Shown here one piece after another: positions 2,368 to 13,259 of a stretch of DNA of 64,000 bases. Each line of letters opens with the position of its first letter. Positions within the stretch are counted from its first letter, which is position 1. The stretch lies in NCBI GenBank assembly GCA_000165345.1, contig CM000430.1, forward strand, positions 672,001 through 736,000, given 5' to 3'. The translations under genes and the position numbers were made by a program. A model generated the notes under the pieces. It was not told the DNA's origin. It saw only the letters and a list, made by a program, of their open reading frames with translations, and ran no database searches.

Positions 2368-5285
<2,918 letters not shown>

Positions 5286-5546
5286 CAAAATTTGTCTCAA
5301 CCAATTTATCAAAAGAAGTATTCTTCTATATTATTTTGATTCTTAGCAATAGTAATGATAAAATATTCATTTAAATTATTACTTCACTTAAATTAATTTC
5401 ATTAATTACATATTTTTTTAATTAACATCACATTTTTTTATTTCACTAATTGTTTTAATATTTTTATAGTAAAAAAGCAAAAAAAAAACTTTCTCAATTA
5501 CTTGCGTTAATGCTCCTTCCACATAAAATAAATATATTTATACACG

Positions 5547-5638
5547 TAATTTGCATGTAATTATTTAATACCGGTATCATTATGTAAACTCTTTCCACAT
5601 TGAAAAAAATGTTGACATATACATGCGTGCATGCAAAT
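5547..5638. promoter_or_regulatory. inverted pair AATTTGCATG ... CATGCAAATT with central ATACCGGTAT palindrome, upstream of PGM copy 1
   Basis: A 10-bp perfect inverted repeat flanks about 72 bp. The inner TGCATGCA box is at 5628-5635. Confidence 0.35.
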
Positions 5639-6134
5639 TTGCAATATATTTAGATAATATATTTCTTACTAAATCCTTTATTAGTTTTATTAAAACAATA
5701 AATAGAGAAAAGTATAAATTATTGTTATTATTACTATTATTATTATTATAAACACAAATTTTGGTTAATTATAAAAGGATAATATCAACAATAAGTAAGG
5801 ATAACAAATAAAGAGCTTAAAGTATAAATTGGAAACTAGTATTTGTGTTTTTTTTTAGAGTAAAGCAAACTGTGTGATTCAATATGAATAATAATTTCTG
5901 AATGCAAATAAATATCTTGGAAATTATCAAATTAAATTAATATTTAGTGGCGCTATGGGGAAAATATTTCTAATCTGGATATTATGTTAATATTACTACA
6001 TGAAATCAAAATAAGCTACTGAATTCAAGATAAATAATATTAAATAATTACCAATTATTTAAGTGCTTTTTTATAAAAACTTTTAAATAATTTTGTTAAG
6101 TTAATAATTGATATATTAATTATAAAATAAAAAT

Positions 6135-7841
6135 ATGGAGCAAGTTCAAGTAACGCCTTATCTTGACCAGAAGCCAGGAACAAGTGGTCTAAGAAAGAAA
6201 ACCCGTGTATTTATGGAAGGAACTTACTTGGCTAACTTTATTGAATCATACTTCCAATCATTCCCACCTGAAAATTTTGAAGGTGCAACACTTTTGGTAG
6301 CTGGCGATGGTAGATTCTTTCTACCAGAAGCAATACAAATTATTTCCGAAATTGCTGCAGCACATAAAGTTAAAAGGATTTGGACTGGTGTTAATGGCTT
6401 ATGTTCAACACCAGCAGGGAGTGCTATCATAAGAGAAAGAGAAGGCGGTATTGCAGTCGGTGGAATCTTATTAACAGCTTCACACAACCCAGGTGGTATT
6501 GATGAGGACTTTGGAGTTAAATTTAACGGAAAGAATGGTGGCCCAGCTCAAGATTCGGTTACCAATACAATTTTTGAAATTACAAAAAAATTAACATCAT
6601 ATAAGAAGATTTCACTTCCTAAAATTGATTTAAGTAAAATTGGCGTGCAGGAATTAATACCCAATCAATTTACCGTCGAAGTAATAGATACATCTGAAGA
6701 TTGGCTAAAATTAATGAAAAAGATATTTGATTTCCAAAAGATTCAAAATCTACTTAATAGAAAAGATTTTAAAATGGCTTTTGATTCTATGCATGGTGTG
6801 GCTGGACCATATGCAAGAAAACTCTTTGTTGACGAATTTGGATTGCCAGAAAGTTCATTGTTACATTTGGAATCAAAGCCAGATTTTGGAGGGCTTCATC
6901 CTGATCCAAATCTTACTTATGCAAAAGACTTAGTTGAATTAATGAAAGTTAAATCTCCAGAAAAAGTTGATAAAAGCACGCCAGATTTTGGTGCTGCTGG
7001 AGATGGTGACTGTGATAGAAATATGATTTTGGGTAAAGGATTCTTTGTTACCCCTTCAGATTCTGTTGCAATTATTGCATCATATGCGAAAGAAGCAATC
7101 CCATACTTCTCAAAAGGATTGGCTGGTGTCTCAAGATCTATGCCTACTAGTACTTCGCTCAATAATGTAGCAGAAAAGCTCGGAATCCCATGCTATGAGG
7201 TACCAACAGGATGGAAATACTTTGGTAATTTAATGGATGCAAAAATGATTGACATATGTGGTGAAGAATCTTTTGGAACAGGAAGTGACCATATTCGTGA
7301 AAAGGATGGATTATGGGCAGTGTTGGCTTGGTTATCGATTCTAGCCCACAAGAATCCAGACCCAACAAAGCCATTGGTATCTGTTGAGGATATCACTAGG
7401 GAATTCTGGAAAACATATGGAAGAAACTACTACACTAGATTCGATTACGAATCAATTGAAACAGAAAAAGCTGATCAATTCTTTAAACATTTAAATTCTT
7501 TAATGGAAGATCATCAGAAATTAAGAGAAATCATTAAACCATATGGTATTGATATCAAATTAACTGATAACTTTACATATAATGATCCAGTAGATAAATC
7601 TGTCGCAAAAAATCAGGGTTTAAGATTTATCTTTCAGGATAACTCCAGAGTTGTTTTCCGCCTATCAGGTACAGGTTCAGTAGGAGCAACAATTCGAATT
7701 TACATTGAAAAGACTGTGAGTGATCAAACAAAAGTTAATAGCACATCAAACGAAATCCTTGGCGATTTGATTGAGATAGTTGAGAAAAAGATTAAATTAA
7801 AAGAATCGACAGGAAGAGATAGGCCAACTGTTATAACTTAA
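6135..7841 (+). CDS. phosphoglucomutase (alpha-D-phosphohexomutase), upstream cytosolic-type copy
   Basis: It has the active-site loop TASHNPGG and the metal-binding loop DGDCDRNMILG, and the length is PGM-like at 568 aa. There is no signal peptide. Confidence 0.9.
   Translation: MEQVQVTPYLDQKPGTSGLRKKTRVFMEGTYLANFIESYFQSFPPENFEGATLLVAGDGRFFLPEAIQIISEIAAAHKVKRIWTGVNGLCSTPAGSAIIREREGGIAVGGILLTASHNPGGIDEDFGVKFNGKNGGPAQDSVTNTIFEITKKLTSYKKISLPKIDLSKIGVQELIPNQFTVEVIDTSEDWLKLMKKIFDFQKIQNLLNRKDFKMAFDSMHGVAGPYARKLFVDEFGLPESSLLHLESKPDFGGLHPDPNLTYAKDLVELMKVKSPEKVDKSTPDFGAAGDGDCDRNMILGKGFFVTPSDSVAIIASYAKEAIPYFSKGLAGVSRSMPTSTSLNNVAEKLGIPCYEVPTGWKYFGNLMDAKMIDICGEESFGTGSDHIREKDGLWAVLAWLSILAHKNPDPTKPLVSVEDITREFWKTYGRNYYTRFDYESIETEKADQFFKHLNSLMEDHQKLREIIKPYGIDIKLTDNFTYNDPVDKSVAKNQGLRFIFQDNSRVVFRLSGTGSVGATIRIYIEKTVSDQTKVNSTSNEILGDLIEIVEKKIKLKESTGRDRPTVIT
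6174..7530 (+). repeat. near-identical segment of tandem PGM duplication (partner 8397..9752)
   Basis: By direct comparison the two tracts are collinear at an offset of 2223 bp with only scattered mismatches. Identity collapses immediately 3' of the codons for MEDHQ/MEDSQ. Confidence 0.85.
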
Positions 7842-8051
7842 TTTTATGGTAATAAACAGGAAACTTAAAAAAGTATAATTCTAAAGATTTTAATGAATTT
7901 TTAATTTCTTAATGTAATTGTTTACAAAATGATTTAATCTGAACTCGAAAAAAAAAAAAAAAAGACCTCATCTTTCGAGGGTTTGGAAGAGCTAATAACA
8001 TTACCGCAAATTAAGAATTAAAACAACACTTTTACTACTTTTTTTACAAAG

Positions 8052-10064
8052 ATGATGAAAATTTTGAACATACTCTTTTCATTAGTTCTTGTAAGTCAGT
8101 ATGTCAATGCAAACGAAAGTGTGGGGAATTTGAGATATTTGCAGAAAATAAATCTGATCGAACCTACCGATGGTCAAGCAAAGGTAGTTACCTCCCAGGA
8201 TGTTCAAATTAATCAGGGAAGGGCCCTAATTAAGAAGAAAGTGTCCGTAGTAACAAGAAATGTCATTGAAACCGAAACAACTGAGACTTATTATTATTCA
8301 GATAAAGGTCTAGATGCTTGGAGTCCTAATGAAAATGATAATCTATTAGATATGTTAGTTCAAGAAGTTCAAATATCTCCTTATCTTGATCAAAAGCCAG
8401 GAACAAGTGGTCTAAGAAAGAAAACCCGTGTATTTATGGAAGGAACTTACTTGGCTAACTTTATTGAATCATACTTCCAATCATTCCCACCTGAAAATTT
8501 TGAAGGTGCAACACTTTTGGTAGCTGGCGATGGTAGATTCTTTCTACCAGAAGCAATACAAATTATTTCCGAAATTGCTGCAGCACATAAAGTTAAAAGG
8601 ATTTGGACTGGTGTTAACGGTTTATGTTCAACACCAGCAGGGAGTGCTATCATAAGAGAAAGAGAAGGCGGTATTGCAGTCGGTGGAATCTTATTAACAG
8701 CTTCACACAACCCAGGTGGTATTGATGAGGACTTTGGAGTTAAATTTAACGAAAAGAATGGAGGCCCAGCTCAAGATTCGGTCACCAACGCAATTTTTGA
8801 AATTACAAAAAAATTAACATCATATAAGAAGATTTCACTTCCCAAAATTGATTTAAGTAAAATTGGCGTACAGGAATTAATACCCAATCAATTTACCGTC
8901 GAAGTAATAGATACATCTGAAGATTGGCTAAAATTAATGAAAAAGATATTTGATTTCCAAAAGATTCAAAATCTACTTAATAGAAAAGATTTTAAAATGG
9001 TCTTTGATTCTATGCATGGTGTGGCTGGACCATATGCAAGAAAACTCTTTATTGACGAATTTGGATTGCCAGAAAGTTCATTGTTACATTTGGAATCAAA
9101 GCCAGATTTTGGAGGGCTTCATCCTGATCCAAATCTTACTTATGCAAAAGACTTAGTTGAATTAATGAAAGTTAAATCGCCAGAAAAAGTTGATAAAAAC
9201 ACACCAGATTTTGGTGCTGCTGGAGATGGTGACTGTGATAGAAATATGATTTTGGGTAAAGGATTCTTTGTTACCCCTTCAGATTCTGTTGCAATTATTG
9301 CATCATATGCAAAAGAAGCAATCCCATACTTCTCAAAAGGATTGGCTGGTGTCTCAAGATCTATGCCTACTAGTACGTCGCTCAATAATGTAGCAGAAAA
9401 GCTCGGAATCCCATGCTACGAGGTACCAACAGGATGGAAATACTTTGGTAATTTAATGGATGCAAAAATGATTGACATATGTGGTGAAGAATCTTTTGGA
9501 ACAGGAAGTGACCATATTCGTGAAAAGGACGGATTATGGGCAGTGTTGGCTTGGTTATCGATTCTAGCCTACAAGAATCCAGACCCAACAAAATCATTAG
9601 TATCTGTTGAGGATATCACTAGGGAATTCTGGAAAACATATGGAAGAAACTACTACACTAGATTCGATTACGAATCAGTCGAAACAGAAAAAGCTGATCA
9701 ATTCTTTAAACATTTAAATTCTTTAATGGAAGATTCTCAGAAATTAAGAAACTCTCTCCGTTCAAGTGGGTTGAAGGTGAAATTTATGGATAACTTTACA
9801 TATAATGATCCAGTAGATGGTTCAGTTACAAAAAATCAGGGTGTTAGGATTATATTTACGGACGGTTCAAGAATTATTTTTAGAATTTCTGGAACAGGAT
9901 CAGTGGGAGCAACTATTAGGGTATATATGGAGAAGACTGTTAAAAACCCTCAGGAATTTGAAAAAACAACCCAACAAGCTCTAAATCACTTAATTGAGAT
10001 AGTTGAGAAAAAGATCAAATTAAAAGAGATTACTGGTAGAAGCAAGCCTACAGTAATTACTTAA
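8052..10064 (+). CDS. phosphoglucomutase paralog with N-terminal signal peptide and ~105-aa extension (parafusin-like candidate)
   Basis: It has the same TASHNPGG and DGDCDRNM motifs. The N-terminus MMKILNILFSLVLVSQYVNANES is a predicted signal peptide. Nucleotides 8397-9752 are about 98-99% identical to 6174-7530 of the upstream copy. Confidence 0.85.
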   Translation: MMKILNILFSLVLVSQYVNANESVGNLRYLQKINLIEPTDGQAKVVTSQDVQINQGRALIKKKVSVVTRNVIETETTETYYYSDKGLDAWSPNENDNLLDMLVQEVQISPYLDQKPGTSGLRKKTRVFMEGTYLANFIESYFQSFPPENFEGATLLVAGDGRFFLPEAIQIISEIAAAHKVKRIWTGVNGLCSTPAGSAIIREREGGIAVGGILLTASHNPGGIDEDFGVKFNEKNGGPAQDSVTNAIFEITKKLTSYKKISLPKIDLSKIGVQELIPNQFTVEVIDTSEDWLKLMKKIFDFQKIQNLLNRKDFKMVFDSMHGVAGPYARKLFIDEFGLPESSLLHLESKPDFGGLHPDPNLTYAKDLVELMKVKSPEKVDKNTPDFGAAGDGDCDRNMILGKGFFVTPSDSVAIIASYAKEAIPYFSKGLAGVSRSMPTSTSLNNVAEKLGIPCYEVPTGWKYFGNLMDAKMIDICGEESFGTGSDHIREKDGLWAVLAWLSILAYKNPDPTKSLVSVEDITREFWKTYGRNYYTRFDYESVETEKADQFFKHLNSLMEDSQKLRNSLRSSGLKVKFMDNFTYNDPVDGSVTKNQGVRIIFTDGSRIIFRISGTGSVGATIRVYMEKTVKNPQEFEKTTQQALNHLIEIVEKKIKLKEITGRSKPTVIT

Positions 10065-11558: not shown

Positions 11559-13259
11559 ATGAATAATATGAAGTTTTTATTTTATTTTGGATTTTTGGTT
11601 TATGTTATTGGATCATCTGTGAATGCTAATGATTTAGCTCTTCCTCTTAAGAAGAATAAGGAATGCGAACATTGCATTATAAAGGGCGATCAAAGTGTTA
11701 AAACTCAGGTTAAAGGAGCCTATTTAGTGGTTGAGAAGGAAACCACTCTTTCTAAAACTCCAGATACACAAATTAAGCCATTTGATGAAGTTCCAAAACC
11801 ACCAAAGGTTGGAACTGATGATGCCGAAGATGATAAAACCAATGTTAAGGAATTAAGTCCCACTGTTGGTGAAGTTCCAAATGTTGTTCCAGAGCCTAGA
11901 TATATTCCAACTGTAAAGATATATGATTCTCAAATTGAGGATTTATCATTTCCAGAAGATGTTGATTCAGAAACACAATCAGAAGAGTCTGAAGATGATA
12001 ATGAAGATGAGCTTATTTTGACACGTTTGCAACTTGGAGGCCAAGTTGAAGTGGTTTCAAAGAGAGACAGTGAAGGTAAGATTGAGATTCAGAATATTGG
12101 TAACCTTGATTTATCTTGTACTCGAATTGAAGAGGAAACTAAGCCAAAGAGTAAATCAAAACTTAGAGGTAATAAATCTTCAAATTCAATGGTTTCTGGT
12201 TCAGATTGCCCTCAAAGTACCCGTTTCCTGACATATGATCTCTTAATGTTACAGAATGTAGGAGAGGAGCCTACTGATGGTGATAGTGTTACTTCACAGC
12301 CATCTTTAGAGCATACAGAGTCTGAGCAGAATAGCGGTAACGGTCGTGTTATTAGAAAGTTAGCTAGTGGTTTGGAATGCGATAAATGTGAATTATGCAC
12401 AGAAGATAAGAAATGCTTCTACCATAATGGTAAGAATACTGATAAATCTTCTGAGGCTTTAGAGTCAGACCTACCTTCATCTACTACTACTACTACTACT
12501 ACTACTTCTTCTTCTACTACCACTACCACTACCACTACCACTACCACTACTACTACTACTACCACCACCGCAATCCCACCTTCAATGTCAGATGAGGAGA
12601 AGTCACCATTTGTAAGTGATGATATCTCCAACGATGAAGTCCCAGCTCAAGATGACTCAAATAAGACTCCATCTACTGAAACAAATAAAGATATAGATAT
12701 GAATGTTTTATTAGACAATATGAATGCTTTAGTTAAGATCGTTAAGGAAGGGAAAGAAGAAAGTGCTAAGGCTCAGTTAGAACTTCGTAAAGATAGGGAA
12801 CTATTGACCAAGGTTATTTTAGATCTTAGAGATTCCAAGGATTTGACACAATTATATATACAGCTTGCCAAACTTGAGATGGAAATTAACTTGGTTAAAC
12901 AAAATATTGGACAATTGAAGAGAGATTTAGAAAAGGCCAAATCTTCTAGTAACTTTTTGACTCAATATGAGAATAAGAATAATACAGAATTAGAATTAAT
13001 GAAAGAGAAAGCTATGAGTAGTAAATTATATTCTCCTAAACTTGCAAGAGCAATTTCCAGACTTGAAAAGAAAAAGATCAGTACTCATGCTATTCAAAAG
13101 GATGTCAGTAAGAGAATTGAAAGCTTATCACAAGCTATTTCTACTGAAGAATCTCGTATTTCTGAATTATTAGAGCAAAAGAAGAAAACTGAAAATATAA
13201 TAAATAAGATTTCAAGTGAGGAGAGGTTATCATTCGATGAAGTTGATAATAAGCATTAA
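11559..13259 (+). CDS. secreted Thr/Ser-rich mucin-like protein with C-terminal coiled coil
   Basis: It has the signal peptide MNNMKFLFYFGFLVYVIGSSVNANDLA and an acidic region. It has a tract of about 30 uninterrupted Thr/Ser encoded by (ACT/ACC)n, which is a likely O-glycosylation stalk. The C-terminus has heptad-like coiled-coil sequence. Confidence 0.6.
   Translation: MNNMKFLFYFGFLVYVIGSSVNANDLALPLKKNKECEHCIIKGDQSVKTQVKGAYLVVEKETTLSKTPDTQIKPFDEVPKPPKVGTDDAEDDKTNVKELSPTVGEVPNVVPEPRYIPTVKIYDSQIEDLSFPEDVDSETQSEESEDDNEDELILTRLQLGGQVEVVSKRDSEGKIEIQNIGNLDLSCTRIEEETKPKSKSKLRGNKSSNSMVSGSDCPQSTRFLTYDLLMLQNVGEEPTDGDSVTSQPSLEHTESEQNSGNGRVIRKLASGLECDKCELCTEDKKCFYHNGKNTDKSSEALESDLPSSTTTTTTTTSSSTTTTTTTTTTTTTTTTTTAIPPSMSDEEKSPFVSDDISNDEVPAQDDSNKTPSTETNKDIDMNVLLDNMNALVKIVKEGKEESAKAQLELRKDRELLTKVILDLRDSKDLTQLYIQLAKLEMEINLVKQNIGQLKRDLEKAKSSSNFLTQYENKNNTELELMKEKAMSSKLYSPKLARAISRLEKKKISTHAIQKDVSKRIESLSQAISTEESRISELLEQKKKTENIINKISSEERLSFDEVDNKH
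12479..12569 (+). repeat. trinucleotide (ACY)n coding microsatellite (poly-Thr)
   Basis: The sequence is tactactactact...accactaccact...; the antisense ORF 12419..12631 is a poly-Val artefact of this repeat. Confidence 0.9.

Follow-up and report, generated by a model that had tools for sequence, protein, structure and literature searches.

A tandemly duplicated phosphoglucomutase gene with a predicted signal peptide in Cryptosporidium parvum and its uneven retention among related species

The window analyzed here is a stretch of 64,000 nucleotides (nt) from the assembly GCA_000165345.1 (contig CM000430.1, positions 672,001–736,000 of the forward strand), and coordinates below are positions in this window. 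It contains two phosphoglucomutase (PGM) genes in tandem. The downstream open reading frame (ORF), 8052–10064 (+), is cgd2_3270 (CpPGM1B, hereafter PGM1B), and the upstream ORF, 6135–7841, is its tandem partner cgd2_3260 (CpPGM1A, hereafter PGM1A). The product of PGM1B, 670 amino acids (aa) in length, matches exactly on chromosome 2 of three Cryptosporidium parvum assemblies. Its database name is "phosphoglucomutase, tandemly duplicated gene" of C. parvum Iowa II. The pair was described by Nie et al. (2021, Pathogens 11:21, PMC8781159), and the main text of that paper reports the tandem arrangement, a 210-nt spacer and ~91% identity between the copies. In the spacer, a block of ~90 nt directly 5' of the PGM1B ATG (7962–8051) is conserved in the alignment of C. 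parvum, C. meleagridis, and C. hominis, and it is likely to be the promoter and 5' untranslated region (UTR). An A-run at ~7946–7961, immediately 5' of this block, differs in length between species.

Both copies contain the four PGM domains of Pfam (PGM_PMM_I, PGM_PMM_II, PGM_PMM_III, and the PGM1 C-terminal domain) above the curated cut-offs. Solved PGM1 structures can be aligned end to end from aa ~103–106 of PGM1B with E-values of ~1e-177, and parafusin from Paramecium (chain 1kfi) with ~1e-168. In the AlphaFold2 model of PGM1B, the predicted local distance difference test (pLDDT) score of the body is mostly >85. The initial annotation, made from the sequence alone, proposed to check whether the catalytic Ser and metal ligands are intact in both copies, and they are. 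Both contain LLTASHNPGG. In an alignment of 46 sequences including both copies, S218, H219, D392, D394, D396, R397, E479, S481, R611, S613, G614, and T615 are invariant. The phosphoserine loop TASHNPGG, the Mg2+ loop DGDCDR, the sugar loop GEESFG, and the phosphate loop R..SGTGS are all kept.

According to the main text of Nie et al. (PMC8781159), both recombinant enzymes are active. The specific activity of PGM1B is ~25–29% of that of PGM1A whether the linker is present or absent, and the recombinant CpPGM1B-S has a Km of 0.13 mM and a Vmax of 2.76 umol/min/mg. The transcript and protein levels of PGM1B are 3–7 times below those of PGM1A. PGM1B is seen as a faint band of ~80 kDa on western blots, aggregates on boiling, and yields mass-spectrometry peptides only in membrane/insoluble fractions. 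In immunofluorescence, PGM1A is cytosolic, while PGM1B marks the pellicle and granules of sporozoites and, in intracellular stages, the parasitophorous vacuole membrane (PVM) (PMC8781159). PGM1A is the cytosolic housekeeping copy. The split into a cytosolic and a secretory copy that was initially suggested is supported both by the sequence checks and by the localization reported in that text.

Relative to PGM1A, PGM1B has an N-terminal extension of 102 aa, which begins with MMKILNILFSLVLVSQYVNANES and consists of a signal peptide of ~20 aa and a linker of ~82 aa. The similarity between the two copies begins at ~aa 103 of PGM1B (position ~8358). A unique extension of ~105 aa ending at 8396 had originally been noted. 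The extension is real, with a length of 102 aa, but that end overruns ~10 codons into the PGM domain. Comparison of the DNA of the extension with the region 5' of PGM1A returned AT-rich noise only, with no sign of derivation from the upstream DNA of PGM1A.

Several independent lines of evidence say that the extension is translated. Given the local base composition, the chance probability of 105 open codons is ~2e-4. The GC content is 34% in the extension, 36% in the coding body, and 19–23% in the adjoining intergenic DNA, and within the extension it is higher at first codon positions (GC1) than at second and third positions (GC2 and GC3). Position -3 of the first ATG is a purine. A ribosome that missed this ATG would meet nine others before Met101, of which eight are out of frame, and leaky scanning to Met101 is therefore implausible. 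In the alignment, position 101 is not Met in C. canis, chipmunk genotype I, C. muris, C. andersoni, and C. serpentis, so the PGM fold of these species can be reached only via a translated extension. The ~80 kDa band fits the long form, as the predicted mass of the full-length protein is ~75 kDa, and that of the product starting at Met101 is estimated here at ~63 kDa. A real start at a downstream Met near 8355, which would remove the extension, had been envisaged in the initial annotation. The Met in question, Met101, is at 8352–8354, and a start there is unlikely in C. parvum, because the upstream frame is open and coding-like and the Met is not conserved. A C. hominis annotation starting at Met101 exists, apparently due to a premature stop upstream.

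The N-terminus was scored with rules based on the classical features of signal peptides. In C. parvum, the n-region is MMK (+1), the h-region is ILNILFSLVLV (11 uncharged residues), and the c-region is SQYVNA. The -3/-1 site is VNA/NES at residues 20/21 (slashes mark predicted cleavage positions here and below). By these rules, the N-terminus has the classical features of the Sec type, which are a short charged n-region, an h-region of ~7–15 residues, and small residues at -3 and -1. The same scoring finds the matching architecture in five orthologues whose sequences are largely unrelated. The cleavage sites are VNA/N or VNA/K in C. hominis and C. meleagridis, VTS/S or TSS/R in C. canis, and SIG/D in C. 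muris. Nothing comparable was found by the same rules in PGM1A or in the hypothetical product starting at Met101.

The signal peptide is seen in nine Cryptosporidium taxa on both sides of the gastric–intestinal split, despite the turnover of its sequence. Taxa with a signal-peptide-like downstream copy include C. parvum, C. hominis, C. meleagridis, chipmunk genotype I, C. canis, C. muris, C. andersoni, and C. serpentis, and in C. andersoni and C. serpentis this form is 624 aa long. By a crude rule, 5 of the 124 ORFs of the window read from their first Met are signal-peptide-like, and three of these five, including PGM1B, are long (353–1007 aa). A lone signal-peptide-like start might be an accident of AT-rich coding sequence, an explanation that does not hold for a feature recurring in nine taxa. 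The possibility of a transit peptide to the mitochondrion or apicoplast was considered as well. It is ruled out by the unbroken hydrophobic core with a single Lys, which is not an amphipathic, Arg-rich presequence. Cryptosporidium is also not known to have an apicoplast. Read by eye, the sequence after the signal peptide contains no Plasmodium or Toxoplasma export element (PEXEL/TEXEL; RxLxE/Q/D or RRLxx, where slashes separate alternative residues). The sole PEXEL-like candidate is R27-Y-L-Q-K, whose fifth residue is Lys; this stretch is KHLQR in chipmunk genotype I and absent in C. canis. The signal peptide that was proposed for the downstream copy in the initial annotation is thus upheld by its canonical architecture, the five orthologues, and the nine taxa, and it is also published (PMC8781159).

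The remainder of the extension is an orphan linker. An exhaustive phmmer search with aa 21–105 against 1.84 billion representative proteins returned zero matches at E<=0.001, and Pfam has no match anywhere in the PGM1B extension. The main text of Nie et al. likewise describes a signal peptide and a linker of ~80 aa "with no apparent homologs" (PMC8781159). A word-index protein search with the 114-aa N-terminus returned no match, not even the C. parvum protein itself, which reflects the limit of the index for short queries and is not evidence; the same search with full-length PGM1B recovers the orthologues. In the AlphaFold2 model, aa 13–96 have a pLDDT of <50, which is uninformative. The linker includes the peptides YLQK..., VSVVTR, and GLDAWSPNENDNLLDMLVQEVQISPYLDQKPGTSGLR. 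Based on the alignment of C. parvum, C. hominis, C. meleagridis, chipmunk genotype I, and C. canis, the motif LIKKK[VI]SV...ET.TTETYYYS (aa 59–83) is common to all intestinal species that keep PGM1B. The linker of the gastric species is shorter (~56 aa), unrelated, and Cys-containing. The features of the locus are listed in Table 1.

Table 1. Features of the PGM1A–PGM1B locus, in window positions.
Feature	Position	Strand	Basis or remark
PGM1A (cgd2_3260)	6135–7841	+	568 aa; no N-terminal extension; four PGM Pfam domains; no hydrophobic N-terminus; published as cytosolic and active
Intergenic spacer	7842–8051	+	210 nt, 23% GC; presumed promoter and 5' UTR of PGM1B
Signal peptide, predicted cleavable, aa 1–20	8052–8111	+	rule-based scoring; reported in PMC8781159
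In-frame 108-nt segment, aa 14–49, GTAAGT...YAG	8091–8198	+	annotated as an intron in C. hominis 634-aa models
Orphan linker, aa 21–102	8112–8357	+	no Pfam match; no homologue; low-confidence/disordered in AlphaFold2 model
Linker motif, aa 59–83, LIKKKVSVVTRNVIETETTETYYYS	8226–8300	+	intestinal-species alignment
Met101, in-frame ATG, aligned to PGM1A start codon; possible alternative start	8352–8354	+	
PGM1 catalytic body of PGM1B, aa 103–670 and stop	8358–10064	+	Pfam, solved structures, AlphaFold2
Catalytic Ser218 within TASHNPGG of PGM1B	8697–8720	+	
Gene-conversion tract, approximate	8394–9680 (partner ~6171–7457 in PGM1A)	+	per-100-nt identity profile, differing positions
Diverged 3' end of PGM1B, ~330 nt	~9735–10064	+	holds A-type versus B-type signal

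The next gene 3' of PGM1B is at 11559–13259 (+), encodes 566 aa, and is syntenic in every Cryptosporidium locus examined. Its product has a signal-peptide-like start, MNNMKFLFYFGFLVYVIGSSVNA/ND, and the cleavage motif resembles VNA/NE of PGM1B. It also contains a long poly-Thr, mucin-like tract and a charged C-terminal region rich in Lys and Glu, which appears coiled-coil-like by eye.

The similarity between the two PGM bodies is distributed unevenly. The first ~1.35 kb is 97–100% identical between the copies within each of C. parvum, C. hominis, C. meleagridis, and C. canis, whereas the last ~330 nt is about 58–86% identical in the same four species. Between C. parvum and C. meleagridis, the synonymous divergence (dS) of the same 5' region is ~0.44. 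The identity within species despite this divergence between species indicates ongoing gene conversion rather than a recent duplication. Neighbor-joining trees agree with this pattern: aa 1–455 cluster by species, while aa 456–568 of the intestinal species form an A-type and a B-type clade. The two copies of C. muris show ~70% identity along their whole length and belong to neither clade. Shared synteny and the shared signal peptide favor a single origin of the gastric and intestinal B copies. The unconverted stretch of ~330 nt at the 3' end has a ratio of nonsynonymous to synonymous substitutions (dN/dS, omega) of 0.09–0.16. Gene conversion homogenizes domains I–III, leaving divergence between the two proteins possible only in domain IV and in the targeting module at the N-terminus.

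PGM1B is not retained in all species. In C. ubiquitum, an intact PGM1A is followed by the spacer's conserved beginning and then by a decayed remnant of PGM1B (~5913–6271 of locus L007). The remnant reads MMKILNFFLLVN, a stop, CELKQ, and another stop, and continues after a frameshift as KEVLVKKKSTCETEILETQYYSN...YFANFIE. The signal peptide, the linker, and the first ~35 residues of the PGM domain can be recognized among the stop codons and the frameshift, and the PGM body is gone. This remnant is a pseudogene. A collapsed assembly cannot explain this locus, as the one intact gene present ends in an A-type 3' region. In C. felis and C. ryanae, one A-type gene is directly followed by the next syntenic gene, and no PGM1B remnant was detected at these two loci. 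C. bovis and C. xiaoi, in the protein cluster that holds the C. ryanae protein, have one 568-aa PGM each and no longer form. The pseudogene remnant and these single-copy species conflict with the main text of Nie et al., in which both genes are stated to be present in all available genomes (PMC8781159). PGM is not mentioned in the main text of the C. felis genome paper.

Another kind of single gene was not counted as a loss. C. meleagridis TU1867, C. tyzzeri, the Logan assembly SRR31860986, and one C. canis isolate (P0134) show a single gene of 566–568 aa, in which a PGM1A start is joined to a PGM1B-type 3' end and followed by the PGM1B downstream flank. The collapse of a near-identical tandem repeat of 1.35 kb would yield exactly this product, and assembly collapse is the most likely explanation. 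The alternative is that these fusion genes originate from a real unequal crossover. The DNA of C. meleagridis TU1867 was amplified by multiple displacement amplification and sequenced on Nanopore. Gene models at this locus are confusing as well. In C. parvum IOWA-ATCC and in another annotation of C. parvum (WRK31118.1), a 568-aa model joins the N-terminus of PGM1A to the body of PGM1B across ~2.2 kb (5001–8930 in loci L001 and L002). In chipmunk genotype I, a 1178-aa model fuses both genes through the spacer. These models (proteins P0141 and P0142) are artefacts. Chimeric and fused gene models and collapsed assemblies are thus hazards for annotation of the locus.

PGM1B of C. hominis is annotated in four ways, with 634, 657, 570, or 607 aa. 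Codon 49 (8196–8198) is TAG in a C. hominis-like contig from ENA (L013), and CAG in C. parvum, C. meleagridis, and C. hominis GCA_045269125.1 (L014). The codon was thus seen directly in C. hominis as TAG in one contig and as CAG in one assembly. Taken at face value, TAG truncates PGM1B after 48 residues. The 634-aa model (OLQ17010.1 and PPA62640.1) skips aa 14–49, and its "intron" ends exactly at TAG. The 570-aa model (CUV04686.1) starts at Met101. Products of 607 aa are found on three ENA contigs, and the one on L013 (P0004) starts at the codon of Val64 (GTG in C. parvum), just 3' of the stop. The 634-, 570-, and 607-aa models look like work-arounds for a stop at codon 49. The other C. hominis models fit TAG in several further assemblies, which suggests a polymorphic, segregating nonsense allele.

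These facts can be read in more than one way. PGM1B might be tethered by an uncleaved signal anchor as a type II membrane protein, with its PGM domain exposed to the lumen, alveolar space, or vacuole. Its membrane-like behavior on boiling and in fractionation would fit, PGM1B has no other hydrophobic segment, and the hydrophobic core of C. muris has 18 residues. The core of C. parvum, however, has only 11 residues, and a small-residue -3/-1 site at 20/21 is conserved in every species; an anchor is thus considered unlikely. It is improbable, too, that the 108-nt segment is an in-frame intron, spliced always or sometimes to give a 634-aa protein starting with MMKILNILFSLVL joined to DVQINQ, in which case the TAG of C. 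hominis would be intronic and harmless. Two C. hominis accessions have exactly this model, both forms stay in frame as 108 is a multiple of three, and the GTAAGT and YAG boundaries are present in three species. Yet the GC content of the segment is 41%, the highest in the extension and above that of the PGM bodies as well as of intergenic DNA. Its dN/dS of 0.3–0.4 and lack of indels point weakly to coding constraint, and it encodes the conserved c-region and cleavage site VSQYVNA. Such a donor is not present in C. canis, all three C. parvum assemblies carry the unspliced 670-aa product, and the exact coincidence of the intron end with a stop codon resembles a patch by a gene caller. A start at Met101, with the upstream 300 nt as 5' UTR and PGM1B as a second cytosolic enzyme, would agree with the alignment of this Met with the PGM1A start and with the 570-aa C. 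hominis model. It is highly improbable in view of the open, coding-like frame of 100 codons upstream, the intervening ATGs, the lack of the Met in C. canis, chipmunk genotype I, and the gastric species, and the native band near 80 kDa of a membrane-fraction protein reported in the main text of PMC8781159. Alternatively, PGM1B could be a redundant, decaying duplicate, with a body that looks intact only through conversion from PGM1A and a signal peptide of no functional importance. The C. ubiquitum pseudogene, the single-copy state of C. felis and of the C. bovis/ryanae/xiaoi group, the nonsense codon 49 of some C. hominis, the omega of ~0.7 of the extension, and the published lower transcript level and specific activity (PMC8781159) are in line with decay. 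Decay nevertheless appears unlikely, given a signal peptide kept in nine taxa across the gastric–intestinal split, the low omega of the unconverted 3' end, a linker motif conserved from C. parvum to C. canis, and a protein that is detectable with a specific localization according to the main text of PMC8781159.

The initial annotation called PGM1B parafusin-like, and this label does not fit. Parafusin (pp63, 1kfi) and PRP1 of Toxoplasma belong to the same PGM1 subfamily, can be aligned end to end with the PGM domain of PGM1B, and are tied to regulated secretion. Parafusin is a scaffold outside secretory vesicles, and PRP1 is cytoplasmic with a small vesicle-associated fraction (PMC5705807). 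Neither has a signal peptide; in the parafusin chain 1kfi, the PGM fold is preceded by just 9 residues, too few for one. PGM1B, which is active in vitro, does have a signal peptide, and its predicted place is therefore the lumenal or extracellular side, opposite to the cytosolic vesicle face of parafusin. PGM1B is also no closer to parafusin than PGM1A is, because the first ~1.35 kb of the two copies shows 97–100% identity and their PGM bodies can be aligned without indels. What PGM1B has in common with parafusin is no more than membership in the PGM1 family and an appearance near secretory structures. That PGM1B is an exocytosis scaffold, regulating Ca2+-triggered secretion as parafusin and PRP1 do, is accordingly very unlikely. 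PGM-family proteins are indeed tied to regulated exocytosis in ciliates and Toxoplasma (PMC5705807), the parafusin/PRP1 idea is raised for PGM1B in the main text of Nie et al. too, and part of the sporozoite signal of PGM1B is reported there as granular (PMC8781159). The same text, however, describes parafusin as being without PGM activity, while PGM1B is an active enzyme, and PRP1 itself is dispensable for the lytic cycle of Toxoplasma (PMC5705807).

The ORF 8052–10064 most probably encodes a catalytically intact PGM1 paralogue that enters the secretory pathway by means of a classical, cleavable signal peptide at its N-terminus. PGM1B would be co-translationally translocated into the endoplasmic reticulum (ER), its signal peptide would be cleaved after Ala20, and the protein might then be packaged into secretory granules and released to the parasite surface or the vacuole interface. 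The orphan linker may serve as a spacer or a sorting element. A non-catalytic, moonlighting role of PGM1B is an alternative. Several points weigh against a cleaved, secreted, and functionally important enzyme. The signal peptide was scored by rules and not by a trained predictor, and both its cleavage and the lumenal topology are inferred. The antibody used for PGM1B was raised against a C-terminal peptide (aa 631–643), so it leaves the presence of the extension on the native protein unproven. The extension evolves near-neutrally, with an omega of ~0.7 in comparison with C. meleagridis (from small counts) versus 0.04–0.16 in the PGM domain. A lumenal or extracellular PGM would require glucose-1,6-bisphosphate and Mg2+ at that site. 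Besides, the gene is expendable in several species, which weakens the claim of an important secreted function.

An ER-type signal peptide is unusual on a glycolytic enzyme. The plastid-targeted PGM isoforms of plants and algae are conventional PGM1 enzymes with an N-terminal targeting extension, and like the two genes here they make up a cytosolic/organellar pair. Their extension is, however, a transit peptide to an organelle that holds starch, while PGM1B has an ER-type signal peptide and the amylopectin of the parasite is cytosolic. PGM1s are typically cytosolic where chloroplasts are absent, as stated in the main text of PMC8781159. The same text cites another Cryptosporidium glycolytic enzyme, CpLDH, as reported at the PVM. 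PGM1B resembles CpLDH as a glycolytic enzyme at this membrane; PGM1B itself has a dedicated targeting module and a cytosolic twin.

The feature is real, was read correctly in the initial annotation apart from the parafusin label, and is already published with enzyme and localization data (PMC8781159). The comparative observations are the parts worth passing on. In the literature searched, the gene conversion, the C. ubiquitum remnant, the single-copy species, and the TAG at codon 49 of C. hominis were not found. A search of the main text of PMC8781159 for the terms "concerted" and "conversion" in the sense of gene conversion found nothing. The supplements of recent papers on secreted proteins contain no cgd2_3260, cgd2_3270, or phosphoglucomutase.

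Cryptosporidium relies on glycolysis and on hexose phosphates derived from the host. Glucose-6-phosphate is carried by the transporters CpGT1 and CpGT2, which reside at the feeder organelle (PMC10327089). A secreted PGM at the host–parasite interface could bear on nutrient acquisition, a question that has already been posed in the literature. Whatever PGM1B does, it is apparently dispensable, because the gene is lost or disabled in several lineages and, it seems, in many isolates of C. hominis. Any function assigned to PGM1B is constrained by the limitation of divergence to the targeting module and domain IV, and by the fact that the secreted copy is not universally required. It can be speculated, tentatively, that the secreted PGM1B is an accessory factor that has been discarded repeatedly, in C. 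ubiquitum, in C. felis, in the C. bovis/ryanae/xiaoi group, and by the null allele of C. hominis, or else that the 108-nt segment is an in-frame intron whose optional retention yields two N-terminal forms with different targeting. In the former case, the presence or absence of a secreted sugar-phosphate mutase at the host interface could be a lineage- and strain-specific trait, which might relate to host range or carbohydrate scavenging.

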